64,000 nt of DNA from an uncultured virus (IMG/VR IMGVR_UViG_3300044693_000183) (lineage: Duplodnaviria; Heunggongvirae; Uroviricota; Caudoviricetes), in the IMG/VR virus record IMGVR_UViG_3300044693_000183; one strand, written 5' to 3'. Position numbers and translations under genes: made by a program. Position 1 is the first letter of the stretch. The number at the start of each line of letters is the position of its first letter. Positions 1,146-62,761 of this stretch are shown piece by piece. The notes below the pieces were generated by a model that worked only from the letters and a program-made list of their open reading frames with translations, did no database searches and was not told where the DNA came from.

Positions 1146-1180
1146 CGGTGTGGGGTCGGGCGCTACCTGGTCAGGGCAGC
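1146..1180 (-). promoter_or_regulatory. CUGACCA-loop hairpin plus CCCACACCG leader element
   Basis: GCTGCC-CTGACCA-GGTAGC then CCCACACCG just upstream of the GH26 start. Confidence 0.7.
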
Positions 1181-1242
1181 AGTGTGATTCAGCGTACGGC
1201 AGCCTTACGCTCGGCGTATTAGCCTGCGCCTTGGCAGCTCGC

Positions 1243-1273
1243 GAACGAGAAACGGCCCCCAGTTGGGGGCCGT
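1243..1273 (-). terminator. Intrinsic terminator
   Basis: 9-bp stem ACGGCCCCC/GGGGGCCGT followed by TTTCTCGTT on the minus strand. Confidence 0.65.
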
Positions 1274-1361
1274 CGGGCTAGGGCTACTGACCCTAGCGGG
1301 GATGCGGCAACTATACATCGGCGCAAGAGCACAGGCGACCGATGCGGTGCTCATCGCCAGG

Positions 1362-1679
1362 TCACGCCACCACCTCCGTCTCGACTGAACCGCCACCGAG
1401 CATCTGCCCCACCTCCAACAGTTGGGCAGCAAGCCCCCGCACCCTGGCAGCCAACGAGCCACCCATACACGGGCCGGGAATCCACCCCTCAGCCATGGCA
1501 ATAGCCACCGCGTGCACCGGATTCTCTGCGCCGATCTTGCGGCACAAGCGGCCCGACCTCTGCCGCACGCTCGCGTGCTCTATGAACAACTGCTTCGCGG
1601 CTTGCTGATACGTGTGGCCCGTCGACAGGAGTTGCAGCAGGGCCAGGTCACCCTGGGATAGGGGGCAGATGTCAGGCAC
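1362..1679 (-). CDS. LuxR-type HTH regulator
   Basis: LSQGDLALLQLLSTGHTYQQAAKQLFI...KIGAENPVHAVAIAMAEGWI; GTG start overlaps the WhiB stop. Confidence 0.8.
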   Translation of the reverse strand: MPDICPLSQGDLALLQLLSTGHTYQQAAKQLFIEHASVRQRSGRLCRKIGAENPVHAVAIAMAEGWIPGPCMGGSLAARVRGLAAQLLEVGQMLGGGSVETEVVA

Positions 1680-2118
1680 AGTCCACCGCCATCGCGTCGA
1701 GTTGCCGCCAGATCGACACGCACCGGCGCTGTGTGCAGCGCTCGCCCGCGGGAACATCGGCCGCCAGCATTGCTGTGTCTGGGTCTGCGGTCATGCCCGC
1801 GTTGCATACGCTGTCACAGGAGTCGGTGACCACGTGCCACTTGTGGATCTTTTTGCGGTGTTGGTGTGGGGCCATAGCGCGGGTGGTCTTCGGATCCACG
1901 GTGACGCCGATGGCCTGCTGAGAGCTCAACGCTTCCCGTTCGGCCTGGTCCAGGCCGCCCCAGATTCCCTGCTCCTTGCGGTCGATGCCGGCCCGTAGGC
2001 ACGGGTCCTTCAGGGGGCAGGTGGCACAGATGGAGCGTGCCCGCGTGATGTTGCCTGGATCTGTGGAGAACCACAGGTCCGGCTCGCTGCGGCAGGGAGC
2101 GTCCTCGGGTCTGCTCAC
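1672..2118 (-). CDS. whiB: WhiB-family regulator with extra C-terminal Cys/His domain
   Basis: C..PDLWF, CxxC, C, GIWGG motifs. Confidence 0.9.
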   Translation of the reverse strand: MSRPEDAPCRSEPDLWFSTDPGNITRARSICATCPLKDPCLRAGIDRKEQGIWGGLDQAEREALSSQQAIGVTVDPKTTRAMAPHQHRKKIHKWHVVTDSCDSVCNAGMTADPDTAMLAADVPAGERCTQRRCVSIWRQLDAMAVDCA

Positions 2119-2387
2119 GCCACCTCACCGCCCGGAACCGGCTCGCTCGTGGTGACGTTGCGGATCGTGCGGATGTCTTCCTCGCGGGCCTGGAGCTGCA
2201 GCGTCCAACAGCCGTCGATCATGCCGTGCATCCGAATGATCTTCGCGGAAGTGGTCTGCACCGCCACGAAAGCATCGAGCATCTGGTTGGAGGGCCACGT
2301 GACCTGGTGAGCCTGCACGTACTCCACGTGACCGCTCATCCATGTGATCTCGTAGGTCCTCAAAGGACCGTAGTCGGAGTCACTCAT
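2115..2387 (-). CDS. Hypothetical protein
   Basis: ORF coupled to the WhiB gene; upstream leader element and RBS. Confidence 0.75.
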   Translation of the reverse strand: MSDSDYGPLRTYEITWMSGHVEYVQAHQVTWPSNQMLDAFVAVQTTSAKIIRMHGMIDGCWTLQLQAREEDIRTIRNVTTSEPVPGGEVA

Positions 2388-2407
2388 GGGAAGGTCTCTT
2401 CCTGTTG

Positions 2408-2521
2408 CGGTGTGGGTGTGGTCGGTGCTGTCTGGTCAGGACAGCGGGGTTGGTCAGCGTAGGACTGGTCAGGTCTCTACGCATCCCAGGATGCGCTACA
2501 GATCAGGGCTGGTCGAGGCCC
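2408..2521 (-). promoter_or_regulatory. Cluster of CUGACCA-loop hairpins plus CCCACACCG
   Basis: GCTGTC-CTGACCA-GACAGC (2427-2445), GAC-CTGACCA-GTC (~2463-2476), GGGC-CTCGACCA-GCCC (~2506-2521), CCCACACCG (2408-2416). Confidence 0.7.
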
Positions 2522-2561
2522 AAGGGGATAACGGTCTAGAAAGCGGAGGTGCAGTGCCTCG

Positions 2562-2954
2562 CTAGCGTCCCTTCGCGAGCGTGCACGTGCAGGTGCCCTC
2601 CGTGAAGGGCTCGTACCCGTGCTCCCGCATCACGGCGGCATGGGCACGGCTGTAGATCGTGGGACCAGCACAGCGCTCATCGTGACCGGCCGCGCGGTGC
2701 CGGCGCCGCGACTCGTGAAAGACAGCGGTCGCCTTGCAGTGGATGTCCTCGTAGTTGCCCCGGAACCGCCCCATGTTCGCCGAGTCGTAGATCCGCATCT
2801 CGGCGTCCTCGAAAAGCTCTTCGTCGGTGAGGTCGCGGAGCTTGGCGATCCAGGTGTCGAGGTCGGCTTTGGTGGACGGGTGGGCCGCCTTGTACTCGGC
2901 CGCGCCGCCGTGGCCGATGAGGTCGATGAGTTGGGCGTCGGTCAGGGTCTTCAC
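2562..2954 (-). CDS. Hypothetical protein
   Basis: Protein-like ORF with GAAGGAG RBS. Confidence 0.75.
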   Translation of the reverse strand: MKTLTDAQLIDLIGHGGAAEYKAAHPSTKADLDTWIAKLRDLTDEELFEDAEMRIYDSANMGRFRGNYEDIHCKATAVFHESRRRHRAAGHDERCAGPTIYSRAHAAVMREHGYEPFTEGTCTCTLAKGR

Positions 2955-3012
2955 TGGTTCTCCTTCGTCTTCTTGGTCCGCTGGGTTACGGGCTGGTTCT
3001 GGTAGTGCTTCC

Positions 3013-3210
3013 TCAACACCCCGAGGCTTCCTGGCTCACCGCTTCGGCGATCTTCGTCAGGTCGTCGCTGGTGTAGGTGTGCGGGTGCTTCGCCAGCTCA
3101 CGCAGCACGGCGACCGTGGCTGCTATCGCCTTCCGCTTGGCGGCCGGGCCGTATGCGGCTCCCTGTGTCGCAAGGGCCGCGGACACCCACAGCTTGTTGA
3201 GGTCCTTCAC
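3013..3210 (-). CDS. Hypothetical protein
   Basis: GTGA overlap with upstream gene, GGAGG RBS. Confidence 0.7.
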   Translation of the reverse strand: MKDLNKLWVSAALATQGAAYGPAAKRKAIAATVAVLRELAKHPHTYTSDDLTKIAEAVSQEASGC

Positions 3211-3410
3211 TTTTCCTCCTTGGCTTTCTGTTGCCCGTAGCGCTTGCGCAGAGCCTCACCTGTCACTGCCACCTCACCCTTGGTTCGGTCGCGCAGCTCC
3301 ACGGAGATCCGGTTCCACGACAGACCCCTCTCCCGTTGGATGGCGATCCAGTCGGGGAGGGGCCGGCGGAGCCTTTTCGCCGCGAGGAGCTCGTTTGCGG
3401 TGGGGTTCAT
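3207..3410 (-). CDS. Small HTH-like DNA-binding protein (Cro/repressor-like), leaderless
   Basis: RERGLSWNRISVEL..VTGEALRK HTH-like pattern; ATG 7 nt after a TACAGT -10 box. Confidence 0.65.
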   Translation of the reverse strand: MNPTANELLAAKRLRRPLPDWIAIQRERGLSWNRISVELRDRTKGEVAVTGEALRKRYGQQKAKEEK

Positions 3411-3417
3411 GGCTCAA

Positions 3418-3465
3418 ACTGTAGTTGGCAACTGGGTTGCGGGCAAGTGGGTTGCGGCGTACTGT
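3418..3465. promoter_or_regulatory. Overlapping divergent promoters (candidate genetic switch)
   Basis: Leftward TTGCCC-17-TACAGT (3446-3418); rightward TTGCGG-17-TACTGT (3437-3465); direct repeat TGGGTTGCGG x2. Confidence 0.7.
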
Positions 3466-3485
3466 GGTGTTCGACCAAAGCACCA

Positions 3486-3519
3486 CCGGGCCTGACCAGC
3501 CCAGACCACACCCACACCG
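3486..3519 (+). promoter_or_regulatory. CUGACCA-loop hairpin plus CCCACACCG leader element
   Basis: CCGGGCCTGACCAGCCC then CCCACACCG then AGGAGG RBS. Confidence 0.75.
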
Positions 3520-3536
3520 AACACAGGAGGCACACA

Positions 3537-3704
3537 GTGCCCACCTACACGGCCTTACGCTCACCCCGAGCAATGAACACGCCGATCACGCGCCGTTCCT
3601 GCTACGTCGTGGCCGAACTCGCCAACAACAGGCTGTGGGTCATCGGCCTCACCACCGCCACCCTGTTCGCTGCCGCGGTGATCGGAGCCGGGCCGTGGAC
3701 CTGA
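3537..3704 (+). CDS. Small membrane protein
   Basis: AGGAGG RBS, C-terminal hydrophobic helix. Confidence 0.55.
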   Translation: MPTYTALRSPRAMNTPITRRSCYVVAELANNRLWVIGLTTATLFAAAVIGAGPWT

Positions 3705-3822
3705 ACCTGATGGAAGGCGTCGGGAGCATGGCGGCTGCCCTGTTCGCCGGCTGGCTGGAGTGGCGCATCGTGCACCAGGCGTGGAAGTTCGCCCGCAGCA
3801 AGAAGGCGCAGGAGGAAGCAAG

Positions 3823-4383
3823 GTGAGCGAACAACGCAACTGGCGTGACTGCCACACCTGCCGGCAGATCGCTGCCGAGCAACGCGCCAGCACCGACGCC
3901 CAGCAGCGGTGGATAACGAGCAGTGTGTGGGCCGCACTGGACGGGGCCGTGCCGCGTGAGGTGCTGCTGGCCATGAGCATGGCCGAGCTGCACGCTACCC
4001 ACCACGTCGAAGACCGCAACACCACGGACTCGATCATGATCACGGGCGTGCGGGAACTCGTCGCGCACTACACCACCAAGACGGTGCCGCGCGACGAAGC
4101 CAACGACCGAGCAACAAACCTGTGGAACTCGTGGCAGGCCGAGGTCAAGCAGATCCGCGAGACCGCAGACGCTGAGGCGCGAGCCCAGTACGAGGCTGAC
4201 CTGCGTGAGGCGCAGACCCGACTTTTGATCGTTGATGCCCTGCGCCACCAGGCCGGAACACGCAAGACCATGCAGGCCGCAGATGTTCGTGCCGCCCTGG
4301 ACTGGGTGCGTGGTGAGGAAGTTCCTGCATTCGCGGTCGAGCACTACCGGAAGATATCCGGCGTGCAGCGAGGCGCTGCGTGA
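3823..4383 (+). CDS. Hypothetical protein
   Basis: GGAGG RBS, N-terminal CxxC, helical protein. Confidence 0.75.
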   Translation: MSEQRNWRDCHTCRQIAAEQRASTDAQQRWITSSVWAALDGAVPREVLLAMSMAELHATHHVEDRNTTDSIMITGVRELVAHYTTKTVPRDEANDRATNLWNSWQAEVKQIRETADAEARAQYEADLREAQTRLLIVDALRHQAGTRKTMQAADVRAALDWVRGEEVPAFAVEHYRKISGVQRGAA

Positions 4384-4474
4384 CTTATCACCGCAGGTCA
4401 GCAAGGGTATACGGGCAGAATCGTTACCCCATAACACGTGACCACAGTAGACCGACCACATAGACTGAACACCT

Positions 4475-4565
4475 GGAGCTGACCACTCCGACCGGGCCTG
4501 ACCAGCCCTGAAACCAACCCAGTACCGCGAGGCGGGGACCACGCCGAGCGGGAACTGACCAGCCC
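4475..4565 (+). promoter_or_regulatory. Tandem CUGACCA-loop hairpins in the leader of the recombination operon
   Basis: GGAG-CTGACCA-CTCC (4475-4489), GGGC-CTGACCA-GCCC (4494-4508), third CTGACCAG at 4555-4562. Confidence 0.7.
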
Positions 4566-4591
4566 ACATCGCAAGCGATAGGACACCGACC

Positions 4592-6040
4592 ATGGCTAGT
4601 TTGAAGACACGAAAGCCCACAGGACGCGCGTCTTGGCCGCTGATTCTCCTCGCCGGGGAAGCGAAGACTGGCAAGACCTGGGCTGCCGCCGAGTTTACTG
4701 GTGACGAGCGCGTGGGCCGATGCTTCTGGATCGACCTTGGCGAGGGTTGCGCTGACGAGTATGGCGCCGTTCCCGGGGCTGACTACGAGATCGTTGAGCA
4801 CAACGGAACCTGGGTCGACATCATCGAGCAGGTCGAGGCCGTTCGCGACGTGGCCCGTGCCGAGCTGGAAGCGGGCAACAAGCCCGTCCTTCTGGTCATC
4901 GACTCGATGACTGCTGAGTGGGCAATGCTCACGGAGTGGACGAACAACCGGGCCAAGCGGTCGAAGTCCAACCGGGCTCTCCTTGCTGACGACCCGGACG
5001 CCGAGATCGACGTCACCTCAAACTACTGGAACGACGCGAATTCCCGACACAACCGGCTGATGAACATCCTCAAGACGTTCCCCGGGATCGTGGTTCTCAC
5101 CGCGCTGGAGACGGAGAAGACCCAGTTCGGCCCCGGCGGTAGGCCGTTGCAGAACGCCCCGAAGGTGGCGAAGCCGGATGGGCAGAAGCGTCTGACCGCT
5201 GACGTCAACATCTGGATCCGGCTGTCACTGACCGAGGAGCCGGTGGTCGTCAGCATGCGGACGGCGAAGCGTTCAATCCGGCCCGGCAAGGACAAGCCGG
5301 AGCCGTGGCCCGACTTCACCCTGGGCAAGCTCGTGTTCGAGTTTCTGGGCATCGACGCGGGTACGGCAGAGGTGCGAGCCATGCCGGTGTTAAACGCAGA
5401 CCAGGTGATGCCGGACGAGAAGCCCCAGCCGGACGAGCCCGACTTTGAGTTGATGGAGAAGCGCGCGAACGACGCCGCGCAGATCCTCGGCGATGCCCAG
5501 AAGGCCACGACACCAGCCGCGTTCAAGGAGCTGTGGGACGAGGCCAACGGCAAGCGGCTGATGGGCTGGCGGATCGGCGAGAAGACGCTGGAGAAGTTGC
5601 TGCGCGCCGAGGCCGACCGTATCAAGAAGGCCGACGCCAAGCCTGCTGCGCAGGTGGAGAAGCCGAAGCCGGCCGTGCAGGAGAAGCCCGCTGCCGCGGA
5701 GCCCGTGAAGCCCGCTCCTGTGGTGAACGCTGGCGGTTTCTTGACCGCAGTCGGTGCGGCCGTGCAGGCAAACCGTAAGGGCCTGATCACTCGGGACCAG
5801 TACACCCAGCTCGGGAAGCTGTACACGGGGAAGCTGCGACTGCCCAATCCGCAAACCCAGTTGCGTCTCGCCACGAGGCTGCTGGAGTTGCCGGCGCCGT
5901 TGACGGATCCGAAGCAGTTGACGGCCGACCAGGCGGTGAAGCTGCTGAAGGAACTGGAGAACATTGCTGAGGCTGGTGAAGCGGCTGACGCGTTGATCGC
6001 CGGGATCTTGCAGCGCACCGACGAGCCCGTTTCCGCCTGA
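4592..6040 (+). CDS. AAA ATPase, Sak4-like single-strand annealing/recombination protein
   Basis: Walker A GEAKTGKT, Walker B LLVIDS; lies upstream of ssb. Confidence 0.8.
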   Translation: MASLKTRKPTGRASWPLILLAGEAKTGKTWAAAEFTGDERVGRCFWIDLGEGCADEYGAVPGADYEIVEHNGTWVDIIEQVEAVRDVARAELEAGNKPVLLVIDSMTAEWAMLTEWTNNRAKRSKSNRALLADDPDAEIDVTSNYWNDANSRHNRLMNILKTFPGIVVLTALETEKTQFGPGGRPLQNAPKVAKPDGQKRLTADVNIWIRLSLTEEPVVVSMRTAKRSIRPGKDKPEPWPDFTLGKLVFEFLGIDAGTAEVRAMPVLNADQVMPDEKPQPDEPDFELMEKRANDAAQILGDAQKATTPAAFKELWDEANGKRLMGWRIGEKTLEKLLRAEADRIKKADAKPAAQVEKPKPAVQEKPAAAEPVKPAPVVNAGGFLTAVGAAVQANRKGLITRDQYTQLGKLYTGKLRLPNPQTQLRLATRLLELPAPLTDPKQLTADQAVKLLKELENIAEAGEAADALIAGILQRTDEPVSA

Positions 6041-6048
6041 TTCTCTCT

Positions 6049-6396
6049 GTGGGCCGCGTCACGACGCGACCGGCGCGGCCCGCAGACCCCAAACCTCCCT
6101 TGGAGTCTGTCATGGACTTGAACTCTGATCGGGACATCCTCGGCCAGTACCCGGATCACACGGTGACACCTGTGCCTGCGGATCGGCGGATGCGGTGGCA
6201 TCACCACACGTGCCCGGACGGCACGAAAGTCCGGGTGCTGGCCCAGCGGATCGCCGCCACGAACACGGTGATCCACAAGTGGGTGGTGGGCGGCGAGTAC
6301 GTGGGATCGAACCCGGTCCGCACGTCGGTGGATGTACCGCCGTCGTGGGTAGTGATCGATGCCGAATACCCGGCACAGGAAAGGAAGGCAGCCTGA
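6049..6396 (+). CDS. Hypothetical protein (start uncertain)
   Basis: Stop overlaps the ssb ATG. Confidence 0.65.
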
Positions 6397-6860
6397 TGGC
6401 ACAAGGCGATGTGACAGTAACGATCATCGGCAATCTCGTAGCTGACGGGGAGTTGCGTTACACCCAGTCGGGCGCTGCGGTGGCTTCGTTCACCGTGGCC
6501 TCCACTCCCCGCACATACGACAAGAACAGCGGCGAGTGGAAAGACGGCGAAGCCCTGTTCATGCGCTGCTCGCTGTGGCGGCAGCCGGCCGAGAATTTCG
6601 TTGAGAGCCTGAGCAAGGGCGCACGGGTGATCGTGGTCGGTCGCCTCAGGCAGCGTTCGTACGAGACCAAAGAGGGCGAGCGCCGTACGGTCGTGGAGCT
6701 CGACGTGGAAGAGGTCGGGCCCAGCCTGAAGTACGCGACGGCGAAGGTAAACAAGGTCGCCCGTAGTTCAAGTGGTGGTGGGTTTGGTGGTGGCAGCAGC
6801 TCGGCCGATGACGACCCGTGGTCGGGCCAGCAGTCCGACGCCGCGGCTCCACCTTTTTAG
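6396..6860 (+). CDS. ssb: Single-stranded DNA-binding protein
   Basis: [27 protein letters not shown]..; acidic C-terminus ending PPF. Confidence 0.97.
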
Positions 6861-6862
6861 CC

Positions 6863-9819: not shown

Positions 9820-10313
9820 AGCGGCGGAGTTTGTACCCGTCGTGGGATTCCTATCTGGATCGTCTGGTGCCGAGGCTGCTGGAGATCGCAGTGGCGGTGC
9901 ATGACGAGGGACCGGACGAGGTACGGCGGCTGGTGATGCAGGCCCGCCGGATGGCGGCGCCGCGCGGGGTGGACCCGGTGGAGGGCCTGGTCGTCGGGCT
10001 GGCCGCGCTGATCGACGTGACCAAGTCACCGGCGGAGTTGTTCGCGGAGGTTGACAAGTTGGTGCCAGTGGCGGGCGTGTGGAAGGGGCTGCGGCGGCCG
10101 CACAGGGCGGTGCCGGTCCGGTCGGAGGTAGTCCGGGCTGTTCTTGCGGGGGAGCAGCCGTATGAGGTGCTGCGGGGGCGAGAACGGGGCGTGGTGGTGC
10201 TGGCGTGGCAGCGTGCCCAGGTGCCGATGGAGGAGATCATGCGGCGTACGGGGCAGACGCGGCGGCAGAATCTGGAGCGGATGGTGGCGCGGGCGGCGGC
10301 GTGGGCGGCGTGA
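9816..10313 (+). CDS. Hypothetical protein
   Basis: ATGA overlap with upstream gene. Confidence 0.7.
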   Translation: MKRRSLYPSWDSYLDRLVPRLLEIAVAVHDEGPDEVRRLVMQARRMAAPRGVDPVEGLVVGLAALIDVTKSPAELFAEVDKLVPVAGVWKGLRRPHRAVPVRSEVVRAVLAGEQPYEVLRGRERGVVVLAWQRAQVPMEEIMRRTGQTRRQNLERMVARAAAWAA

Positions 10314-11500
10314 GACTTTCGGGCAGTGGTTCCCGTTTTTTGCGCATGGTTTTCAATGCCGAGCGGGTTGCCAGGTTCTTGTAAGGAAATTGACAGGATC
10401 CTCTGATGAAAAGCTTTCCCGCATGCGTATGGCACGCCCTCGTGCTCAAAAGCGACCATCACCAAGAAGCCCAAACGGGTGATGCTCGTTGCTATAGGTT
10501 GAATGGTTATGTAACGCTCGGTGGCGAGGTCGCGATACCTCAACTAGCCAGGAAGACCGGTGGACCACCGGCTCTACCAGGCGAAACCCACACCGCGGTA
10601 TTGAACACAGGGCAGGGAGGGAGCGCATGTTGACCACCGACGCTTCCCCCGACCCGACCCAGACGATGACATACTGTGACCGCGCAGATACTTCCTGCGG
10701 TACACACTCAGAATCGGGTCGGCGCTCGGCGTTAGCCGGACGAAACTGCGCGCAGCGTTTCTGACCAAAACACTGCGACCCTCCCCGCCCTGTGCCAGCA
10801 TCTACAGATGCGGACACGCCGATGACTGGTTTGCTTAACACATGGCAACTAGTTAGTGTGCCGTGTAGCAGAAGCGCCCCGGAGGCGGGCAGAGGCGAGG
10901 CAGGGGACCAACCCGTACTCGCGCCAGCGAGGAGTGACCCCCAACCTATCGTGGGGAGGCGGCGACCAAACCGCCGACCCCGGTTGGGGCACTTCCCGCT
11001 AGCCCCGCCGTCCGGAGCTAACCCTCTCCTGTGGCGCCGGGGGGTTGGACGCTTCCCACACCGCGGCCGGGCAGTCAGAAGCCCGGCACTTGATGAACGT
11101 CCATCCTCCCGAGTCGGCGGCAGTAGTCACGTCGACGACTGCGCCACGATCGAGGGCTGGGTACATCCTATGCGCTGGAGTCTCGGTCCTGTCACCAGCC
11201 TAGGTCTTTGCCCCAGTTGCGACACTTCTTAACCCCATCGCACCTGCGTGGTGTTTGCCGCGCAGGCGTTACAACGGTAACAGGCTGCTTGTCTTGGACG
11301 CTAGACGGCGGCGCGCGGTGGGGTGGGTGCTTGGTTTAGGACAGATGGGCCACAGTGACTGCTCCAGCGCGCCCGCCATGCCGTTGACCTGCGGAAACAT
11401 GGTTCTCTACAACGCTTGTAGAGATGCGGTAGACACGCCAAAGACATGTTATGGCCATGTCTCGGAAATCTTACGGAGAGAGCATCCCGGAAACGGAGAT
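10314..11500. ncRNA. Candidate large structured non-coding RNA or origin region
   Basis: No convincing long ORF; dense nested stems; class not recognised. Confidence 0.4.
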
Positions 11501-11796
11501 GACGTGACACGCCCGGTGTGGGCGACACGCCTGCACGAATGGCTCATCGATGGCCAATACACCCGCCTGGAACCGCCAGAGTGTGCTAGGCGGCGGGTGG
11601 GGGAACGGCCAGGGTGCCTGTCTGCGTTCTGGGTCCGCCGGGGTTAAGGCCCCGTGTTTTTCGGGCACGCCCTGCGCGGCGCGTGCTGCGCCGTCGACTG
11701 CCTGCCGGGGCCTGGGGTGGCGGCCCGCTTGGGCGGCCCGCTACAGCCGTATGGGCCCGGCTGGCGCCTGTCCGGGGCCGGCATGACACATCATGG

Positions 11797-11825
11797 TTGA
11801 CTCAAGCAACGCGCTGGCGTAAAGT
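11797..11825 (+). promoter_or_regulatory. Housekeeping-sigma-type promoter
   Basis: TTGACT-17-TAAAGT; shares GGCGTAAAGTAACT with the promoter at 21511. Confidence 0.75.
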
Positions 11826-11843
11826 AACTACCGACCGAAAGAC

Positions 11844-11875
11844 CCGGGCCTGACCAGCCCAGACCACCCACACCG
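11844..11875 (+). promoter_or_regulatory. CUGACCA-loop hairpin plus CCCACACCG leader element
   Basis: Near-identical to 3486-3519. Confidence 0.75.
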
Positions 11876-11897
11876 AACACCAAAGGACGTCGCCGCC

Positions 11898-12092
11898 ATG
11901 GCAGACAACCTCCGCGCACGCGGACTCAAACTCACGCGCCAGGTCGAGGACATCATCCTGCCCGTGCTCAACGAGCACCCTGAGGAAATCACCGGCACCG
12001 ACCTCCTCGCCCTCGCCGTCGCAGCGCAGACCTACGTGCTCGCCAGCGGTCTCAGCGGATCCGGCACCACGCCGCCCACCATCACCGACTGA
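11898..12092 (+). CDS. Hypothetical protein
   Basis: AAGGA RBS downstream of promoter. Confidence 0.7.
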   Translation: MADNLRARGLKLTRQVEDIILPVLNEHPEEITGTDLLALAVAAQTYVLASGLSGSGTTPPTITD

Positions 12093-13110: not shown

Positions 13111-13265
13111 TGCCGGCCCTGGAGTCTCCGCGGGACGGCGAGCTCGGCGTCCGCCCGGACTGCCCCGAGTACGACCTGCCGGCCGGCCACGATCCTCCTG
13201 CCGCTGGCCCTGACCGGCCAGATCCAGCTCCCGCACCACTGAACAACAGCCAGAAAGGACACCTG

Positions 13266-13714: not shown

Positions 13715-14818
13715 ATGACGCGCATCGAAAAGCTCACCGCCGAGCAGGAACACCAGCTCGCCACCGTCCGCGACGAATGGATCGCCCATGGCCTGTCCAC
13801 AGTGCCCGCGCACCGCGCACTGGCTGTCGCCGGCGTCAATGAGGCCTACCAAGCCGCCGGCCTTGAACCACCCCGCATCGTGATCTGGCTCGACTCGCCG
13901 ATGGCCGGTGCGATCGGCGCTGCCTACCTCAAGCACATCCTCACCGATCCGGCTCAGGTCGGGGATCAGGTCCGGGCTCAGGTCTGGGATCAGGTCTGGG
14001 ATCAGGTCCGGGCTCAGGTCGGAGCTCAGGTCGGGGATCAGGTCCGGGCTCAGGTCTGGGATCAGGTCCGGGCTCAGGTCCGGGCTCAGGTCGGAGCTCA
14101 GGTCGGGGATCAGGTCCGGGCTCAGGTCTGGGATCAGGTCCGGGATCAGGTCCGGGCTCAGGTCCACCGCGCCTGCTGGGGCCAGCACGACTACTGGCTG
14201 TGCTTCTACGACACGTTCAGGCGCTTCGGGTTGCCTGGCACCGACCGCGTCAACGGCCTCGTCCAGACCGCCCAGAACGCCGGCTGGTGGTGGCCCCACC
14301 GCGGTGCCGTTATCCTCACCGAACGCCCCGTGGAGATCCACCGCGACAACCAAGGCCGGCTACACTGCGAGACCGGGCCTGCGATGCGCTACCCCGACGG
14401 TTTCGCCATCTACGCCTGGCATGGCACCCGCGTGCCCGCAGACCTTGTCTCGCCTGGCTGGGACGCGAAGCGCGTGTTCGCTGAGGAGAACACGGAAATC
14501 CGCCGGTGTGCCGTGGAAAAGATCGCCGCCACTGACGGGTGGGATCGCATCGTCGCCGAGCTGGGCTGCCCCCAGGTCGGGTCCACCGTGGACGACCCCG
14601 GCAATCCGGGTCAGACGCTGCGCCTGTACCGGCTGGAAAATGTCTACGACGAGCCAGTCGGGCTGCTGCTGATGACGAACGGCACCGTCGAGCGTGATGG
14701 CACCCGTCGCGAGTTCGGCGAGACCGTGCCCGCTTCCATTTCTGATCCCGTGGCCGCCGCGGCGTGGCAGATCGGGATCTCCCCCGCCAACTACCGCCTC
14801 ACTGCACGACGCACGTGA
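13715..14818 (+). CDS. DUF6745-like protein with internal 4-aa repeats
   Basis: [40 protein letters not shown] motifs. Confidence 0.85.
13952..14164 (+). repeat. In-frame 12-bp tandem repeat, about 18 units
   Basis: Unit G(C/A)TCAGGTC(C/G/T)G(G/A) encoding (A/D)QV(R/G/W). Confidence 0.95.
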
Positions 14819-16210: not shown

Positions 16211-16578
16211 ACACCCACCAGCCACTGCTCGACATGCTCCGCGTTGCTGTCCCACTGGAAATGGCCTCGGTGACCGAGGCCAGCATGTGCCTGTTCCTCG
16301 CGGACCGGGACCGCTATCTGCGGAGCCTGGATCGGGTCGACGCATTGCGGAAACAGGTCCGAGAGATCCACGCCGAGGCAAACAAGTCCAAGCGCGAGTT
16401 GACCCCAGCGGAACGGTCCGAGGTGGACCGGCTCAACGCGACGATCGGGCAGCTGTACGACCAGGTCGATACCCAGACGATGGTCACGGCCGAAGCGTTC
16501 CAAGAGGACCCGCGCAGCCGCTACTCGCATTACCGCTACCCCTGGATCACGACAACCACACAGGATGGAGAGGACTGA
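16207..16578 (+). CDS. Hypothetical protein
   Basis: Coupled ORF. Confidence 0.7.
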   Translation: MNTHQPLLDMLRVAVPLEMASVTEASMCLFLADRDRYLRSLDRVDALRKQVREIHAEANKSKRELTPAERSEVDRLNATIGQLYDQVDTQTMVTAEAFQEDPRSRYSHYRYPWITTTTQDGED

Positions 16579-17150
16579 TGGACTGGAGAGAACACGCGAT
16601 CTGCCGCGATGCCCCCGACCCGGACTTGTGGTTCCCCGTTGGTGATTCCGGCCCGGCCCTGCTTCAGGTCGCCGAAGCGAAAGAGATCTGCCGGCACTGC
16701 CCGGCAGCTGCGGCCTGTCTCGCGTACGCGCTGGAGACCAATCAGAGCGACGGTGTGTGGGGCGGAATGACCGTCGGCGAGCGGCACGCCCAGCAGCGCC
16801 GTAACGCCGGGACCCGCCAGCGTGCCCAGCAGCAACCCGGCCCCAAGCAGGACCCGCGGCGCCCGCTGGTTCAGGACGGCCGAGTGATGGCCGCCCCGCA
16901 CACGCACCTGGGCCGCTCCCACTGGGGCAACCGGCCCAAGGTGCACGTGGCTGGTGTGGACGGCCGATCGATGTGCGGCACCACGGCAGAGCTGAACCTG
17001 GGGCACGCACGCCCAGCCACAGAGGTCGGGGTGGGAGAGCAGTGCAGGAACGGTGGCTGCCGGAAGACGTTTGTGCGGGAGGTGCTTCGGGAGGCGCTTG
17101 TGGCTGCTGGTATCCGTGCCGCGCTGCCTGGCGAGATCAGCGGTGCGTGA
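16578..17150 (+). CDS. whiB: Second WhiB-family regulator with C-terminal Cys/His domain
   Basis: MDWREHAIC..PDLWFP..AKEICRHCP..C..GVWGGMT. Confidence 0.92.
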   Translation: MDWREHAICRDAPDPDLWFPVGDSGPALLQVAEAKEICRHCPAAAACLAYALETNQSDGVWGGMTVGERHAQQRRNAGTRQRAQQQPGPKQDPRRPLVQDGRVMAAPHTHLGRSHWGNRPKVHVAGVDGRSMCGTTAELNLGHARPATEVGVGEQCRNGGCRKTFVREVLREALVAAGIRAALPGEISGA

Positions 17151-18248: not shown

Positions 18249-18283
18249 CCGGGCCTGACCAGCCCACGACCGATCCCACACCG
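18249..18283 (+). promoter_or_regulatory. CUGACCA-loop hairpin plus CCCACACCG leader element
   Basis: Exact 17-mer CCGGGCCTGACCAGCCC, CCCACACCG, then AGGAG RBS. Confidence 0.75.
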
Positions 18284-19906: not shown

Positions 19907-19993
19907 GGTGTGCGGGGTGAAACACGGAGGGGGCGGGCACCGATATGCCGGTGTCCGCCTCCGACCGGGGGCCAAGCACAAGGGCCGCTGACC

Positions 19994-20482
19994 ATGGCTA
20001 ACGCCACTCCCGCACCGCCGTTCCCGCAACCCCAGGACACGCCACCCCGTAAGCCCCGCACCGGATTGAAAGTGCTTGGGGGCATCGTGGGTGGCGTGTT
20101 CGTGTTCTTCCTCGGTGTCGCCGCTGGGGGCGGTGGCGGTTCGACTGCGGCGTCTGCGACGAAAACCGTCACGGTCACCGTGCCGGGGGCGGGGCAAACC
20201 ATCACCGTGCAGCCCACCACCACCCAGCCGGCTGGCCCGAAAACCACGGTGTCGGATGGCACGTTCCACGTGGGCGACGACATCACCGCCGGGCGGTGGA
20301 AGACCGATGGGCCGTCAGCGGACAGCGTGACCCACTCCTGCTATTGGGAGCGGACCAAGGACGACTCCGGAAGCTTCTCGTCGATCATCGCGAATGACAA
20401 CATCTCGGGGCCGACGTCGCTTACCGTGAACGCGGGGGAGTTCGTGAAGTTCTCGGGTGGTTGTACCTGGAGTCACGCGTAG
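19994..20482 (+). CDS. Membrane-anchored extracytoplasmic protein
   Basis: TM helix, Thr-rich linker, DGTFHVGDDI..CYWER..IIAND..GCTW domain. Confidence 0.8.
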   Translation: MANATPAPPFPQPQDTPPRKPRTGLKVLGGIVGGVFVFFLGVAAGGGGGSTAASATKTVTVTVPGAGQTITVQPTTTQPAGPKTTVSDGTFHVGDDITAGRWKTDGPSADSVTHSCYWERTKDDSGSFSSIIANDNISGPTSLTVNAGEFVKFSGGCTWSHA

Positions 20483-20544: not shown

Positions 20545-21441
20545 CTACTCGACGCCGAACAGGCGACGCAACCGCTCCTCACCCACACCCGTCGCACGGC
20601 GGTATCCGGTGAGGGCCTGCCGGTAAGCGCGATCCGCCTCGCCGACCGGTCCCGCCTCCAGCAGCTCGGACAGTTCCGTCGGCTCCGCCGGGGCGAACAG
20701 GTCAGGCGGAACAACAGCCCAGCGTCCCGTGGTCGGAGACTTGTTCTCCACCGCCCACGCCACAGACTCTGGCCGGAACGCCACCATGTCCACAGTTGAG
20801 CCATCGGCGCCCATCACAGGTACGCCAGCCAGTCTGCCTGTGCGCCACACCTGGTTGACAGCAGACCGACCGATCCCCATGTAGTCGCTGGCTTCCGCGA
20901 CGCGGAGGAGTGGGGGAATGAGCTGGTCGGTCAACGGTTCGCCCACCTCGCGGGCGAGGCCAAACGTGTTGTTCTTGACGCACCAGAGGATCAACTCTCG
21001 ACGGAACACCACGTGACGGTGCCTGCGCTTCCCCGCTTGTTGCTCTTTGCCGGTACCGAGAAGGCGGCAGGGAAGACGCCCGACGGAGTAGAGGCGTTGG
21101 ATGTACTCCCGGTCGACGCCCCACAGCACGGCGGCACGAGCCGTATTGACCAATGGTGGCACGGACGGGTCTACCACAGCGCGCTCTGGTAGGAGCGCCT
21201 TCTCTTCGGGCGTGGTGCGCGGGTAGCAGATGCGGCATGTGTCGAAGTCGCGGCCGTCAGGCTGCCAGCGTTCCGCCTGGATCGTTTTGCCGCAGGCGGT
21301 GCGCACAGTCAGCGTGCCACCATCGGGGGTGGTGTCGTACTGGAGCAGTGCGACATGCCTTCTACCCCGATAGAAGGCGGCGGAGGTCGGGGCGTGCGGA
21401 AGCCAAACGACGTCGAACTGAACGGGCGTTGCTGTCGGCAT
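20545..21441 (-). CDS. DNA-binding protein with two excisionase/MerR-like HTH domains
   Basis: Two PPL..AA..G....GRL repeats; N-terminal H/C motif. Confidence 0.75.
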   Translation of the reverse strand: MPTATPVQFDVVWLPHAPTSAAFYRGRRHVALLQYDTTPDGGTLTVRTACGKTIQAERWQPDGRDFDTCRICYPRTTPEEKALLPERAVVDPSVPPLVNTARAAVLWGVDREYIQRLYSVGRLPCRLLGTGKEQQAGKRRHRHVVFRRELILWCVKNNTFGLAREVGEPLTDQLIPPLLRVAEASDYMGIGRSAVNQVWRTGRLAGVPVMGADGSTVDMVAFRPESVAWAVENKSPTTGRWAVVPPDLFAPAEPTELSELLEAGPVGEADRAYRQALTGYRRATGVGEERLRRLFGVE

Positions 21442-22235: not shown

Positions 22236-22240
22236 TCTCT

Positions 22241-22295
22241 GCCCCGACAGCTCCGATGGTCCACTCAGCGGGTTCGACTCCCGCTGGGGGCACAA
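22241..22295 (+). ncRNA. tRNA-like element lacking an anticodon arm
   Basis: Acceptor stem GCCCCGA/TGGGGGC, D-arm-like AGCTC..TGGT, T-arm GCGGG-TTCGACT-CCCGC, 3' ACAA. Confidence 0.65.
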
Positions 22296-22331
22296 CACTG
22301 CACATCCCACACCGAACAGAGGAGACCCGAG

Positions 22332-53593: not shown

Positions 53594-53646
53594 CCTGCTG
53601 TCCTAACTTGGGCTCTGAATCGAGTACTTGCTCGGCATTTTCGGCA

Positions 53647-54003: not shown

Positions 54004-54023
54004 GGGAATCGTGGGCCTCCATG

Positions 54024-55036: not shown

Positions 55037-55070
55037 GACAACCTCCAGACCAGTGGATGGCGTAGCAAGA

Positions 55071-56384: not shown

Positions 56385-56425
56385 GGCAAGACCACCCCAC
56401 GCTTCCAGCGGGCCTCAGGCTATCG

Positions 56426-56752
56426 CTACGCGACCTCGCTCCACGATGGCAGCTGAGGGTCGTTCGTGCTGGGAATGAGACCAACACACATCACCGTGTT
56501 CGTGGGGCTGCCCCCGTACAGGCAGACACCCAAGTACGGCCTGGCCGCAGTCAGTGGGCGGTTCGTTTCGGCGAGGACAACATCCACGGTGATCGAGCCG
56601 TCCTCGGCTTGGGTGAGGGTGGCGGTGCCGATCGGGGCGCTGGTGTCGTAGTTGACAGTGAACGGCACGGTCGCTGGCACCGACCACGCGGTGGGGTTGA
56701 TGCCATAGATGGCGCCAAACGCGGCGCGGAACGCAGTGCCCTGGATGTGCAT
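56426..56752 (-). CDS. Hypothetical protein
   Basis: Abuts the repeat protein stop. Confidence 0.65.
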   Translation of the reverse strand: MHIQGTAFRAAFGAIYGINPTAWSVPATVPFTVNYDTSAPIGTATLTQAEDGSITVDVVLAETNRPLTAARPYLGVCLYGGSPTNTVMCVGLIPSTNDPQLPSWSEVA

Positions 56753-58726: not shown

Positions 58727-58767
58727 CTCCTAGCGCGTTCTGACCGGCAAGGTTAAAGCAAGCTTTG

Positions 58768-59265
58768 CTACTCCTCCCAGGTCACAAACGTCCAGCACCC
58801 GACCGAAGCGGCCGCCGTGACCCTGACCCGCAAAAACTTACTCACAGGCAGCTGTGCCTCCCGGCCTAACGGCCACTGCTTGACATACAACCCCGTAGGG
58901 GCCAGCAGCTGGGCATCGAACGTCCTGGTCGTGGTGATCGACCCCTCGGCCGTGGCCGTGTAGCCCGTCGCGGAAGCGCCTAAGGTGACCGTGGAAGCTG
59001 GCGCGTTCGGGTCGTCGTAGGGCTGCACCCCGCTGGCGACATGCGCTGTAACAGTGGCGGCAACGTCCGTCTGGATCAGCTCGACCTGGATCGGCGTAGC
59101 GGCAGCCGAGCCGTCGAAGCTGATACCCCACTCGACAATCTTCAACGGTCGAGTCGCCGAGGATGCGATCTGCAGCATGGTCTTGATGGACGTGCCGGTG
59201 GCGACCTTCGCGAGAGCGGAGGTGGTGGCCATCGGCCCGTTCGCGGCCCAGTACAGGGTAGCCAT
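58768..59265 (-). CDS. Hypothetical beta-rich protein, putative virion accessory
   Basis: EWGISFDG..PI.VEL..LRVRVT..WEE; GGGAGG RBS. Confidence 0.75.
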   Translation of the reverse strand: MATLYWAANGPMATTSALAKVATGTSIKTMLQIASSATRPLKIVEWGISFDGSAAATPIQVELIQTDVAATVTAHVASGVQPYDDPNAPASTVTLGASATGYTATAEGSITTTRTFDAQLLAPTGLYVKQWPLGREAQLPVSKFLRVRVTAAASVGCWTFVTWEE

Positions 59266-59324
59266 CGCCGCCCCTCCCTATCGGTCAGCGCAGAAGTCAA
59301 GAGAAAGGCGAATATGAATAAAGC

Positions 59325-59942
59325 TCACATGCTTACCGTCTGTGTGATCGTCAGGGCATCCCCAGACGCGGACAGAGTCGCGGTGGCGGACAGCAGCGTC
59401 TCGTGCAGCATCTGCCCCGAGGTGATGCTGTTGAACGTGCCGATCTTCGCAACCGTCACCGGCAGGCTGTCTGAGCCGTTCGCGGTGAACGTTCCCGTCA
59501 GCGTGTACGCGTTCGTACCGGCAGTGTGGGCATACGTCGCGAGCTTCCGCACCAGGCCACCACCGCTCGTGGTGATCTCCCCTGTCAGGGCCGTGTCCGT
59601 CGCCGCCGGGGCCGTCGAGTTCGCCGTCAGCGCCATGTACCACACCGGGGCACCGCCCGGCAGGATCACATACGCGCCAGTGGCGGGGGTGGATGCCGCA
59701 GCACCGCCCGGAGACGCAGGCGTATACCAGCGGTCCACAGTGAGCGCCGTCGCCGTGTTCGACACGACCACGCCATACACGCTGCCCGTCGCCACCAAGT
59801 GACCGGTCCAAGCGTTCGTCGTCCACGACTTGCCGGAGTCAGTCAAGGTCGTGGCGGTCGTGCCGGTCGAGGTGCCAGTGTCGCCAGCGAGGTCTCCGCC
59901 GAGGTTGCGGGCCTCGATGTCGTTGCCGCTGTTGGTCTTCAC
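59325..59942 (-). CDS. Putative virion structural protein
   Basis: TLTDSGKSWTTNAW, ALT..TAPAATDTALTGEI, GDALTIT.T. Confidence 0.75.
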   Translation of the reverse strand: MKTNSGNDIEARNLGGDLAGDTGTSTGTTATTLTDSGKSWTTNAWTGHLVATGSVYGVVVSNTATALTVDRWYTPASPGGAAASTPATGAYVILPGGAPVWYMALTANSTAPAATDTALTGEITTSGGGLVRKLATYAHTAGTNAYTLTGTFTANGSDSLPVTVAKIGTFNSITSGQMLHETLLSATATLSASGDALTITQTVSM

Positions 59943-60202
59943 GGGGTGTCGTCCTCCCAGTCATCGGGTCGTCCGACGGCGATCCCGTAGTGAGCTGCTA
60001 TCCGAGCGGCGAAGTCTGGGTCGTCTGCCTCGACCCAGTCGGGTGCGGGTGCTGTGCTGTGGTTCGCCCACACCCCATCAAGGCCAGTGATGGCGAGGAA
60101 CTCCTCATCAGGTGTGAGGCCATCAGGGATGATGGCTGTAGTGATCCGCGCAGCCGGCTCGGGTAGGCCCCGCGGGCTGCTGTTGCCGAGTAGAACTCGC
60201 AT
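59939..60202 (-). CDS. Hypothetical protein
   Basis: GVWANHS..PDWVE.DD; overlaps next gene. Confidence 0.7.
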   Translation of the reverse strand: MRVLLGNSSPRGLPEPAARITTAIIPDGLTPDEEFLAITGLDGVWANHSTAPAPDWVEADDPDFAARIAAHYGIAVGRPDDWEDDTP

Positions 60203-60223
60203 GTGCCGGGGTTTCCCGTCTAG

Positions 60224-60922
60224 CTAGTAGGTGGCGGCGCGGCGCACGGCCTGCCGGACGATCACGGGCTGCGGGAAGATGGCGGCGGCGGGGAGCACTT
60301 CCATGGCGGCGATCTCGTACGTGTCCGAGTTGCCCGTGGTGAACCCGAACGTCGTCGCGCCCGGCGAGCTCGTGGCCGCCGCGCCTTTGAACGAGCTGTA
60401 CGTCTCCACCTCGGACGTGTCCTGAAACCAGGAGATCACCGAGGTGTTCGCGTTGGCGGTCAGCTGGGCCTGCGCGGTCGCGTTATCGCCGAGCACCCCA
60501 TACACCCAGGAACCGGCCTGGGTGGTCGTCACACTCACGGTGGGGGTGACGCCGCTGGTGGACCCTGTCGCACCGGTCTGCGTGGGAGAGCAGCCCGTGA
60601 GGACCCGGACGGTGAGGAGCTGGCCGGCGCCACCGTTGGTGGGGGTCGCGGTGACAGTGATCGACCCGGGCGCGCTAGCCAGGTACGTCCACCAGACCTC
60701 TGAGGTGGGGACACCGGTAGCGTTCTGGCGTTTCCCGAGTGTCCACGTGTGACTGCCCGAGTCAGACAGGGCGAGGGTGCAGGTGCCCGAGGCGGGGCCG
60801 AAGGATGCCAACGCGACTAGCAGGCTGCCAGCCGGTGGGGAGAACGACGCGGTAGTCAGTGCCGAGCTGGACGCCGCGGCGGTGACTGTCGCGGGGCTGG
60901 AGGCGTCCTCAGCGATAGCCAT
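60224..60922 (-). CDS. Ser/Thr-rich beta protein, putative virion accessory
   Basis: TTASFSPPAGSLLVA..WT..; tail VRQAVRRAATY. Confidence 0.75.
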   Translation of the reverse strand: MAIAEDASSPATVTAAASSSALTTASFSPPAGSLLVALASFGPASGTCTLALSDSGSHTWTLGKRQNATGVPTSEVWWTYLASAPGSITVTATPTNGGAGQLLTVRVLTGCSPTQTGATGSTSGVTPTVSVTTTQAGSWVYGVLGDNATAQAQLTANANTSVISWFQDTSEVETYSSFKGAAATSSPGATTFGFTTGNSDTYEIAAMEVLPAAAIFPQPVIVRQAVRRAATY

Positions 60923-60949
60923 GCTCCGCCCCTTCTTGCCGTGGCGGGG

Positions 60950-61170
60950 TTTGTGGCTGGCCGGACCGGTGTGGGATGCCCGGCCAGCCACGATGGGACC
61001 CGGTTGGCTTCAGTTGGCCCTGAAGTTACAGCGAGTACATTACCTATCACCGTGGGTTCAGGGAGCACTGAAGGTGGCCAACCGCGCACCACTGGTCAGG
61101 CAGCACGCGACAGTCCACAACAGCGACAGAAGGAAGGGCCTGCCTGCCCAGCGCCGCTACTGGGCAGGCA
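60950..61170 (-). promoter_or_regulatory. Structured late leader: stacked hairpins including CUGACCA and CCCACACCG loops
   Basis: Stems at 61143-61168, 61083-61109, 61002-61083, 60953-60991. Confidence 0.6.
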
Positions 61171-61176
61171 GGAGTC

Positions 61177-61649
61177 TCAACAGGACACCGACTCCAGGAC
61201 TGCGCGGTCATCGAGGCGGGCCACCATGTGACTCGGGCCCGCGTCGAGTACCTCCCGGAGGTGGGCGCACAGCCAGTCCCCCTCAGCCACGAACGCCTTG
61301 CATGGGATGCAGTAGCCGACCGCGTGCCGGCTGGGCTGCGGAAGGCGCTTGCCTTTCATCGCCTGCTCGGCGGCGGTCACCGTCAAGACGTGCTCGCTGC
61401 TCAACCGTCCTCCTCCATGCGCTCGTGCCTGGTGGCGTCCTGTCGGCGGACGGTGTCGTGGAGGCCGGAGATCATGCGCTTCAGCTCGGCGTGGCCCTGC
61501 GCCAGCTCGGCGTGGCGGCGCTTGTGGACCCGATGCCACACCCACGCCAAGAGCGCAACGGCCGGGGACCAGATGAGACTCGCGACGAGGTTCGGGTAGA
61601 CGCTGTCCCAGCCGGGCCAGATCGCGGCCCACAAACCGGGCCAGTCCAT
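61177..61649 (-). CDS. Two small ORFs (61401-61649 membrane protein; 61177-61404)
   Basis: GGGAGG RBS; YPNLVASLIW TM segment; TTGA overlap. Confidence 0.6.
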
Positions 61650-61685
61650 TCCGGCCTCCCAGCGTCATCATGGGGTCAGGAAACA

Positions 61686-61721
61686 CCTCAGCCCCCGGGA
61701 AGTAGACACCGGGGGCTGAGG
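61686..61721 (-). terminator. Strong hairpin/terminator
   Basis: CCTCAGCCCCCGG...CCGGGGGCTGAGG. Confidence 0.65.
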
Positions 61722-61766
61722 TGAAAAACAGGATTTGGGCGCGCGGGAACAACCCGCGACTGGATC

Positions 61767-62660
61767 TTACGCGACGGATTCGACCCCACGCAACAGTGCC
61801 TGCCGCTTCTCGTGCACCCGGATAGCGGAGTGCTTCGCGCGCTCCACAATGTCCCCGAGCCGATACAGCGGGGTGCCCTCCGCCGTGTGCCCAGCCACCT
61901 CCAGCCGGGGCTGATTGGCCCGCGGGTAGTTGGCCCACGAGCGGATAGTCTTCACGTTCAGCTCCCTGCCCAGCAGTGCGGGAATGGCGCGGGACGCCTC
62001 AGCGGCGGTGAGGACATACGCCCGCGCTTTCTCTAGGAGCCATTCGCGGCGCTCCCACGCGTCATACTCGGCCTGGCAGTCGGCGCACCTCGCGACGGAC
62101 TTGTCTAGCCAGCCCCACACCTGGCCACCACAGTCGGGGTGGCACGGCCCGCAGTAGCGGCGCTCCGCAGGGCGGTCGATCACGCGCTCTACGGCGGTGA
62201 CTGCGGCGAGGATGGCGGCTACGGCCTGCCCGGCTATCTCCATGGACGCGATGGACCACACGTGGTCTGTCAGCCACTCCGCCGCGTCCGCCAGGCCGGG
62301 GAACAGGGTGGTGAGGGTGAGGTTGTGGTAGCCGGCGGTCGTGATCACCCAGTCCACGAGGGTCGCGTGCAGCTGCTCTTTCACGGTGGCGGCGAACTCG
62401 TTCCACGGCAAGCCCAGCTCCCCGCCTGATGCGCCTGGTAGGCCGGTGTTGCGGGACCGGATCCTGGCTTGTCCGGTGATGGTGGCTTCAAGCTCGTCCA
62501 AAAGGGACCTGCCCCGTTCCCCTGAGCTACTGGGGGCGTTGGTTGCGGTCAGCTTCCACAGGGCGTGACGCAGCTTGCTGATGCAGTTAAGGCAGATGTA
62601 GGCGTCGTCGGGTCTGGGTGCCGTGCATGAGACGCAAAGTTGATCTATGGCGGTGGGCAT
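61767..62660 (-). CDS. Putative late-gene transcriptional regulator
   Basis: N-terminal CxxC pairs, IDRP..GPC..C..CxxC, C-terminal TIRSWA..LYRLGD HTH; directly upstream of late genes. Confidence 0.7.
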   Translation of the reverse strand: MPTAIDQLCVSCTAPRPDDAYICLNCISKLRHALWKLTATNAPSSSGERGRSLLDELEATITGQARIRSRNTGLPGASGGELGLPWNEFAATVKEQLHATLVDWVITTAGYHNLTLTTLFPGLADAAEWLTDHVWSIASMEIAGQAVAAILAAVTAVERVIDRPAERRYCGPCHPDCGGQVWGWLDKSVARCADCQAEYDAWERREWLLEKARAYVLTAAEASRAIPALLGRELNVKTIRSWANYPRANQPRLEVAGHTAEGTPLYRLGDIVERAKHSAIRVHEKRQALLRGVESVA

Positions 62661-62761
62661 GGTCAGGGCCCTCCCGAAGGGGTTACGCGGTGTGGGTGTT
62701 GTGCTGGTCAACACCGAGCGTAACCCCTCGGGTGGTCCGATAGGGGAAGCAACCCGCCAAA

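Follow-up and report, generated by a model that had tools for sequence, protein, structure and literature searches.

The C4 RNA of phage P1 and the CI RNA of phage P4 are antisense RNAs that shut off one operon. Both are small phage RNAs with two separate complementary stretches, which pair with structured leader targets. The start-associated repeats SAS, of Cluster K mycobacteriophages, and ESAS, of Cluster EF Microbacterium phages, are conserved at the ribosome-binding sites (RBSs) of many non-structural genes and are described as having no known function (PMC3203893, PMC7302621). We analysed a 64,000-nucleotide (nt) stretch of an uncultured virus (IMG/VR record IMGVR_UViG_3300044693_000183), hereafter the window, which comprises most of a novel temperate actinophage with 65% G+C. 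An RNA hairpin with the loop CUGACCA recurs there, and in this phage is joined by a CCCACACCG box. The hairpin is a non-random tag at the early leaders of the window, common to phages of two phyla and accompanied by a second site near the start codon. Judged from sequence, its best reading is C4/CI-like antisense control of early-gene translation, which we hold tentatively and at somewhat less than an even chance.

CTGACCA closed a stem of at least four contiguous pairs at 10 of its 26 copies in the window, against a background of 2.4% (Bonferroni 4e-6). When all 7-mers were ranked by stem enrichment, CTGACCA came first and its own reverse complement second. All ten strict hairpins lay in intergenic DNA, which makes up 13.5% of the window by our own gene calls, and followed the direction of transcription, as the initial annotation had proposed. 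A TANNNT hexamer was found 12-31 nt upstream of seven of them, compared with 3% of random positions, the transcription starts being predicted ones. Every hairpin and box listed in that annotation was located, its loop variants near 2506, 10557 and 13204 were present as variant hairpins, and copies at 19983-19999, 2457-2482 (bulged, nine pairs) and 62655-62671 were added. The annotation had further held that only the transcribed strand allows the G-U pairs. This was clearly so for 61084-61108 (-), whose four internal G-U pairs give the strongest strand evidence (-13.8 versus -3.6 kcal/mol), and weakly so for 1162-1180. It did not hold for 10751-10777, where a C-A mismatch becomes a G-U pair on the opposite strand; the hairpin folds better on that minus strand (-13.3 versus -9.9) and shows UGGUCAG there. 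The loop C-U-G-A-C-C-A is presumably of the U-turn type (YUNR rule). One close relative was compared, in two pieces. At the 2439/2472 site it has a single hairpin with the same loop on a different five-pair stem, and its other copies stand elsewhere on other stems. A covariance model mostly recovered its own training copies. New with it were 2460, 62654 and 13204, at E 0.017-0.055, a range that the best control matches (0.044 and 0.062) also reached.

The same hairpin was found in other phages. An exact-hairpin scan returned 21 stretches. Eight of these represent a single enterobacterial prophage, in which three to five CUGACCA hairpins stand on differing stems. Without the box, the hairpin occurred in lambda-like prophages of E. 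coli, Pectobacterium, Stenotrophomonas and Aeromonas, and the cultured phages ZF40, BUCT708 and phiARM81mr also carry it. The enterobacterial prophage is lambda-like, with no N-like gene evident, and its hairpin leader is present in 478 of 5,426 complete E. coli genomes (about 9%). A tandem-loop scan gave at least two hairpins in 11 of the 119 loci examined, and a third scan gave 155 loci, 83 of them longer than 4 kb and 72 of these 83 with at least two hairpins (these loci overlap). No hairpin was seen in the stretches examined of lambda, HK022 and Rac. In the E. coli K-12 chromosome, paired loops were about as frequent as expected (5 of 38 by our own count, against 4.75), and a regulon in the host genome was rejected on this ground.

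Covariation counted over paralogous copies is inflated because those copies were chosen for pairing. An orthologous leader site of the enterobacterial prophages, aligned by flanking anchors and not by pairing, provided the fair test. At this site 91.2% of cells were paired over 17 distinct sequences (kinship uncontrolled), and both sides had changed in five cells, a count that none of 500 shuffles reached. The closing pair was C-G in 11 sequences, G-C in two, A-U in one and U-G in one, and was broken in two; the loop varied as N-U-(G/A/C)-A-C-C-A. This covariation, together with the lack of any match for the element in Rfam 15, supported two proposals of the initial annotation, namely that a fixed-loop RNA hairpin serves as a repeated leader element and that it belongs to no described Rfam family. 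Two further observations concern similar hairpins. Five loci of unrelated phages of 45-65% G+C have single long-stemmed intergenic CUGACCA hairpins, several just before an RBS, which may widen the range or be chance. Two actinophage loci showed other enriched hairpin loops, GACGA (11 of 84) and CCCTCAC (5 of 6).

A second GACC stands at the start codons. In gammaproteobacterial phages the hairpin is followed by the Shine-Dalgarno sequence, GACC and AUG, and the distance from hairpin to start-proximal GACC is 19-32 nt in 75 of 79 distinct enterobacterial sites. By our gene calls, GACC lies within 13 nt before the start of 9 of 28 early genes in the window and of none of 27 late genes, against 28 of 299 starts in 23 actinophage loci used as a control (p=0.0017). 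An Aeromonas locus had 10 of 15 such starts; lambda had 0 of 20, HK022 0 of 17 and Rac 0 of 28. The placement of GACC between the Shine-Dalgarno sequence and the start points more to translation initiation than to RNA polymerase.

The window contains 14 copies of the CCCACACCG box, where Markov models predict 1.7-2.7. Ten occurrences are intergenic and sense, three are antisense within the tape-measure gene, and one is intergenic and antisense; wherever box and loop are both present, they lie 10-16 nt apart. The box had been said to precede an RBS at seven sites; of these, 10587 has no called gene behind it, and the box at 11055 has none either. A loose-pattern scan of a genome collection gave, among the matches listed, mostly coding chance matches. 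Of 120 loop-plus-box matches from a loose collection scan, only 6 had a stem of at least four pairs. A metagenome scan found no hairpin with box. The combined pattern matched six times in 401 actinobacterial genomes and three times as a reversed control, so these matches are chance, and a further search gave 0 of 5. In the scans made, the combination is known only from the window and its one close relative. Enterobacterial loci contained ten distinct boxes in 1.41 Mb, which is no enrichment, one of them adjoining GACC in ZF40. Going by its absence from the enterobacterial versions, the box is no obligatory partner of the hairpin.

A second type of hairpin, with an 8-nt loop, bears on the strand from which an antisense RNA would be read. 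In 15 distinct sequences it contained 16 internal G-U pairs in the antisense reading and none in the sense reading, and the antisense loop shows UUUGGUC(A/G). This tally of internal pairs replaced a first one of G-U against A-C, which had counted terminal mismatches. In four gammaproteobacterial phages, the opposite strand holds an RNA-like unit that matches the phage's own start sites. It consists of the complement of the phage's own RBS, one or two UUGGUC loops and a terminator hairpin with a U-tail. The four candidates have folding z-scores of -4.5 to -8.8, and the E. coli prophage unit has a TATACT hexamer upstream. For each, the best pairing is with start sites of the phage's own type (median perfect duplexes of 12, 11.5, 7.5 and 13 nt). 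Cross-phage medians are 5-9 nt, save for E. coli and BUCT708, which share one site sequence and cross-match. Since a target match is the repeat read from the other strand, only strand evidence makes the unit an antisense RNA. We infer that these RNAs are expressed, pair with their targets and repress them. A relative of the antisense loop could be the GUCCY-hairpin motif, which is listed without an Rfam family (PMC2864571).

In the window, the copies with no gene behind them (10557-10595, 10751-10777 and 11055) cluster in one 500-nt stretch, together with a hairpin of the 8-nt type at 10958-10975; the one at 10751-10777 is the hairpin that prefers the minus strand. The 8-nt-type hairpin shows UUUGGUCG on the minus strand, and its type is antisense in enterobacterial prophages. 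The minus strand of 10446-11170 presents UGGUC loops and two anti-box stretches, between a leftward TANNNT (11170) and a terminator-like hairpin that has a U-tail (near 10446-10490). By analogy, this stretch may encode an equivalent antisense RNA. Its sequence in the relative is 99.1% identical, which leaves no covariation to be read there. The wider region 10313-11898 is 1.6 kb without a called gene, with an AT-richer left end and 99% conservation of 10400-11320 in the relative; it may be the site of the replication origin as well.

Under antisense control, the hairpin would be the target tag for a phage-made antisense RNA. A short mRNA stem would show the CUGACCA loop, with a second single-stranded stretch near the RBS, namely GACC between the Shine-Dalgarno sequence and the start, plus the CCCACACCG box in the window phage. 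A small RNA from the opposite strand would carry UUGGUC loops and be complementary to the second stretch. Pairing would begin with contact between the loops, the second helix would cover the site of translation initiation, and several early genes would be switched off together. We favour this reading because the same loop occurs in unrelated phages without a shared regulator, and because compensatory changes were seen at the anchor-selected enterobacterial site. It is also favoured because GACC is enriched before the early starts of the window and absent before the late ones, and because the 8-nt type has its G-U pairs in the antisense reading and the candidates match their own phage's start sites. 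Lastly, the gene-less window copies cluster, and GACCA in the intergenic DNA of the window is sense 39 times and antisense 10 times.

A number of observations weigh against antisense control. In 60 enterobacterial sequences of the 7-nt hairpin, the G-U pairs (19 versus 16) picked no strand, and 41 of the 60 were more stable antisense. The anti-RBS stretch is predicted to lie partly within a stem, and for the BUCT708 candidate the sense strand has the better z-score. The window candidate scored better on the plus strand in five of eight segments and on the minus strand in two, with one tie. Its complementarity reaches 7 nt to the loop and 10-12 nt to the boxes, while unrelated leaders reach 11 nt; being the repeat seen from the other strand, it cannot prove pairing. 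With z-scores favouring the plus strand and matches this short, the antisense RNA of the window is argued by analogy. One gammaproteobacterial locus with two hairpins has GACC at 0 of 18 starts, and two of the nine early GACC starts in the window are the hairpins at 19983 and 62655 themselves. The counts also overstate independence because the enterobacterial sequences are related. A wider claim is possible, though we regard it as doubtful. Temperate phages of two phyla would share one RNA-RNA code, in which early mRNAs present a GACC U-turn loop, a phage small RNA presents a UGGUC loop, and a second RBS helix is specific to each phage (the box in the window; AGGAAA, AGGCAA and AGGACCC types in gammaproteobacterial phages). 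The code would serve an antisense regulon that spans the genome, appears in no RNA catalogue and is carried by about 9% of complete E. coli genomes.

The two-site layout would also suit a GACC-specific RNA-binding protein that reads the loop and the Shine-Dalgarno-proximal site and represses translation in the manner of CsrA or Aca2, the arrays being operators or sponges; we consider this unlikely. Csr/Rsm targets have one hairpin-loop site and one Shine-Dalgarno site, with multi-loop arrays and an essential GGA (PMC3856055). The element resembles them in its arrays and in the pairing of loop and start, and the 19-32 nt spacing fits the two-site model, but it has GACC instead of GGA, no CsrA was found in the window or its relative, and the enterobacterial versions have just a doubtful CsrA-like gene. 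That gene (L276:13380-13562), located after the recombination genes of enterobacterial prophages, encodes a protein of 60 amino acids (aa) predicted to form five strands and a short helix. Its faint likeness to CsrA (Atlas CsrA cluster 0.87; PF02599 E 0.26; hhalign 2.7%) came with no fold match, and the kinship is unproven. The protein is present in 55 of 72 loci with at least two hairpins and in none of 11 with one (overlapping loci), which speaks for a protein reader. However, it was not found in the window, the close relative or five other prophages, nor in Aeromonas prophages, and the element stands upstream of its gene in 0 of 26 cases, ZF40 being the one exception. As a universal reader it was rejected for these reasons. 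Gene 2115-2387 (-) follows three hairpins and encodes a 90-aa product of an actinophage family with 42 homologs, whose predicted fold is weakly Sm/Hfq-like (Z 4.2-4.6). It was rejected on co-occurrence, none of 36 other loci of the family having two hairpins; the lack of an excess in E. coli K-12 likewise counts against a protein. Aca2 and Aca1 RNA motifs are hairpins in 5' untranslated regions, lying directly past the transcription start, through which the translation of several phage operons is controlled (PMC13551039). The window hairpins, seven of ten just past predicted starts, share this position and to that extent favour a protein. No acr-aca operon or Aca protein was identified, and the ZF40 hairpins lie in early operons; the comparison was by description, with the motif sequences outside it. 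For the window itself, a protein may still be the reader.

The initial annotation had favoured a protein-read site like lambda nut. At such a site the hairpin would recruit an antiterminator to RNA polymerase just past early promoters, and the promoter-proximal position of seven of ten window copies accords with this. The short stem and CURACC-type loop also resemble the phi21 boxB hexaloop CUAACC (PMC12550061), a CUAACCA variant exists, and terminator-like hairpins flank the enterobacterial arrays, whose leaders have no annotated N gene. Nevertheless, the element has a 7-nt loop and at least ten copies instead of a pair, many at internal gene starts, and its box is unlike lambda boxA. No N-like or other RNA-binding family was detected among the 113 open reading frames screened in the window (about 7 kb of the contig lies outside it), where small divergent N proteins could be missed, and no relevant regulator or other protein was common to the actinophage and gammaproteobacterial phages carrying the loop. 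A loading site would leave the GACC between Shine-Dalgarno sequence and start, and the AUG-holding hairpins, unexplained, and the downstream terminators have the longer U-tail on the opposite strand. We thus no longer regard it as the leading reading and hold it quite improbable. Least probable of all is that the box is a stoperator-like DNA site for a phage repressor and the hairpin a separate signal stabilising or processing the 5' end. The box is indeed asymmetric, intergenic and oriented with transcription, stands without a hairpin at 11055, 22306 and 60967, and is not enriched in enterobacterial loci. Its constant distance from the loop and its position in a predicted loop at 60967 do not suit a DNA site; the look of a DNA operator already belongs to another repeat (11816, 21474, 21530), and the conserved loop would be left unexplained. 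The existence of 6-9 nt loops and of single-stranded sites led us to drop anticodon mimicry.

Compared with described systems, the element would by analogy work most like C4/CI, while fully belonging to none of them. As with C4 (RF01695, targets RF03163) and CI, it may be the target of a small RNA with two target-complementary stretches, which is predicted for four gammaproteobacterial phages, but its targets are spread over many early genes, its loop sequence differs and the Rfam models fail. The Rfam C4 and c4-a1b1 models matched nothing in the window, whether at the gathering threshold or at E<=5, and nothing on the enterobacterial and Aeromonas leaders; a C4 match in the E. coli prophage lies in a different place from the element. 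C4 families are listed, and the P1/P7 paper cited, in PMC2864571. As with SAS/ESAS, the box and GACC of the window sit at early-gene RBSs, and the Cluster EF consensus has GACC right after the Shine-Dalgarno sequence, also in phage AnnaSerena. The element differs in its sequence, which does not follow the Cluster K or EF consensus, and in its pairing stems. The 17-bp inverted repeats of ESAS are reported not to support RNA pairing (PMC7302621), and the AnnaSerena sites showed no CUGACCA hairpin in the 34.7 of 56.7 kb covered. ANTAR target RNAs have two hairpins with hexaloops, A1 and G4 (PMC8164766), whereas the loop here has 7 nt and starts C-U-G-A. A literature search on the loop sequence with phage or hairpin found nothing, though supplementary motif lists (GUCCY-hairpin, Aca, large phage RNA screens) may hold the element. 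Others, on actinophage antitermination hairpins and on CMfinder phage motifs, found nothing relevant, most subscription papers being outside their reach. No mechanism has been given for the start-associated repeats of actinophages since their description, and the element offers a concrete and cheap test, consisting of the loop, its complement and a second helix that differs between phages. It also bears on how N-less lambda-like prophages coordinate their early genes. Laboratory study is possible, although the window phage is uncultured, because versions exist in E. coli genomes and in the cultured ZF40, BUCT708 and phiARM81mr.

The early arms of the window phage diverge at 3410/3537. On the minus strand, the leader of gene 47-1135 has a seven-pair CUGACCA hairpin at 1162-1180, 16 nt past a TANNNT, and a box at 1146-1154 adjoining the Shine-Dalgarno sequence. 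This gene encodes a GH26 glycoside hydrolase, carried on the phage with its own promoter and element, and is 100% identical in the relative. Gene 2115-2387 is preceded on the same strand by a box at 2408-2416, with a second GACC between Shine-Dalgarno sequence and start. A six-pair CUGACCA hairpin (2427-2445, -), the bulged nine-pair one (2457-2482, -) and a variant with GACCA at the end of an 8-nt loop (2506-2521, -) also lie here. On the plus strand, a CUGACCA hairpin at 3488-3502 lies 26 nt past the -10 of the rightward early promoter, with a box at 3511-3519 upstream of gene 3537-3704. The Sak4-like ATPase gene 4592-6040 has two tandem CUGACCA hairpins (4474-4508, +) in its leader and GACC directly before its AUG. 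The copies at 10557-10595 (+) comprise a variant hairpin and a box, whose minus strand reads as anti-box and anti-loop, and the orphan box occupies 11055-11063 (+). A hairpin and box at 11846-11875 (+), 24 nt past a full sigma-70-type promoter (11797-11825), are in the leader of gene 11898-12092. The sole intergenic antisense box lies at 11510-11524, in a hairpin with a box-complementary loop, GGUGU, on the plus strand.

Further along the plus strand, a variant hairpin (G at the loop end) with a variant box occupies 13204-13237, before gene 13266. A hairpin and box at 18251-18283 lie 30 nt past a TANNNT, and GACC stands between the Shine-Dalgarno sequence and the GUG of gene 18305. The weak hairpin at 19983-19999 includes the AUG of gene 19994-20482 and is a doubtful member. 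The box at 22306-22314, before gene 22332, has no hairpin and directly follows a tRNA-half-like element (22240-22295, +) with an acceptor-like stem and a 7-bp T-arm, which includes GGUC. This element is kept in the relative although the adjoining genes differ, and the E. coli, ZF40 and Aeromonas prophages have T-arm or tRNA-like pieces resembling it in their left leaders. On the minus strand, which also carries the structural genes, a strongly folded 200-nt late leader (60915-61115, -96.8 kcal/mol) lies between a helix-turn-helix (HTH) gene block and gene 60922. A box at 60967-60975 is predicted to lie mostly in the loop of a long stem of the late leader. The phrog_908 HTH gene 61767-62660, probably a late regulator by its position, has its AUG in the 9-nt loop of a hairpin at 62655-62671 (-) and a variant hairpin with box upstream at 62688-62715 (-). 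The hairpins at 19983 and 62655, each including a start codon, could be RBSs first.

Other features of the window were also noted. Its terminase is 56% identical to that of Arthrobacter phage RootBeer. WhiB-family genes occur one in each early arm (1672-2118, -; 16578-17150, +), and a LuxR-type HTH at 1362-1679. A DUF6745 gene has 12-bp coding repeats (13951-14164, +) that differ in copy number in the relative. The 13-nt repeat GGCGT(A/G)AAGTAAC at 11816 (+), 21474 (-) and 21530 (+) overlaps -10 regions; two copies flank the divergent HTH gene 20545-21441 and one lies at the promoter of gene 11898. From its sequence and position, this repeat is a probable DNA operator.

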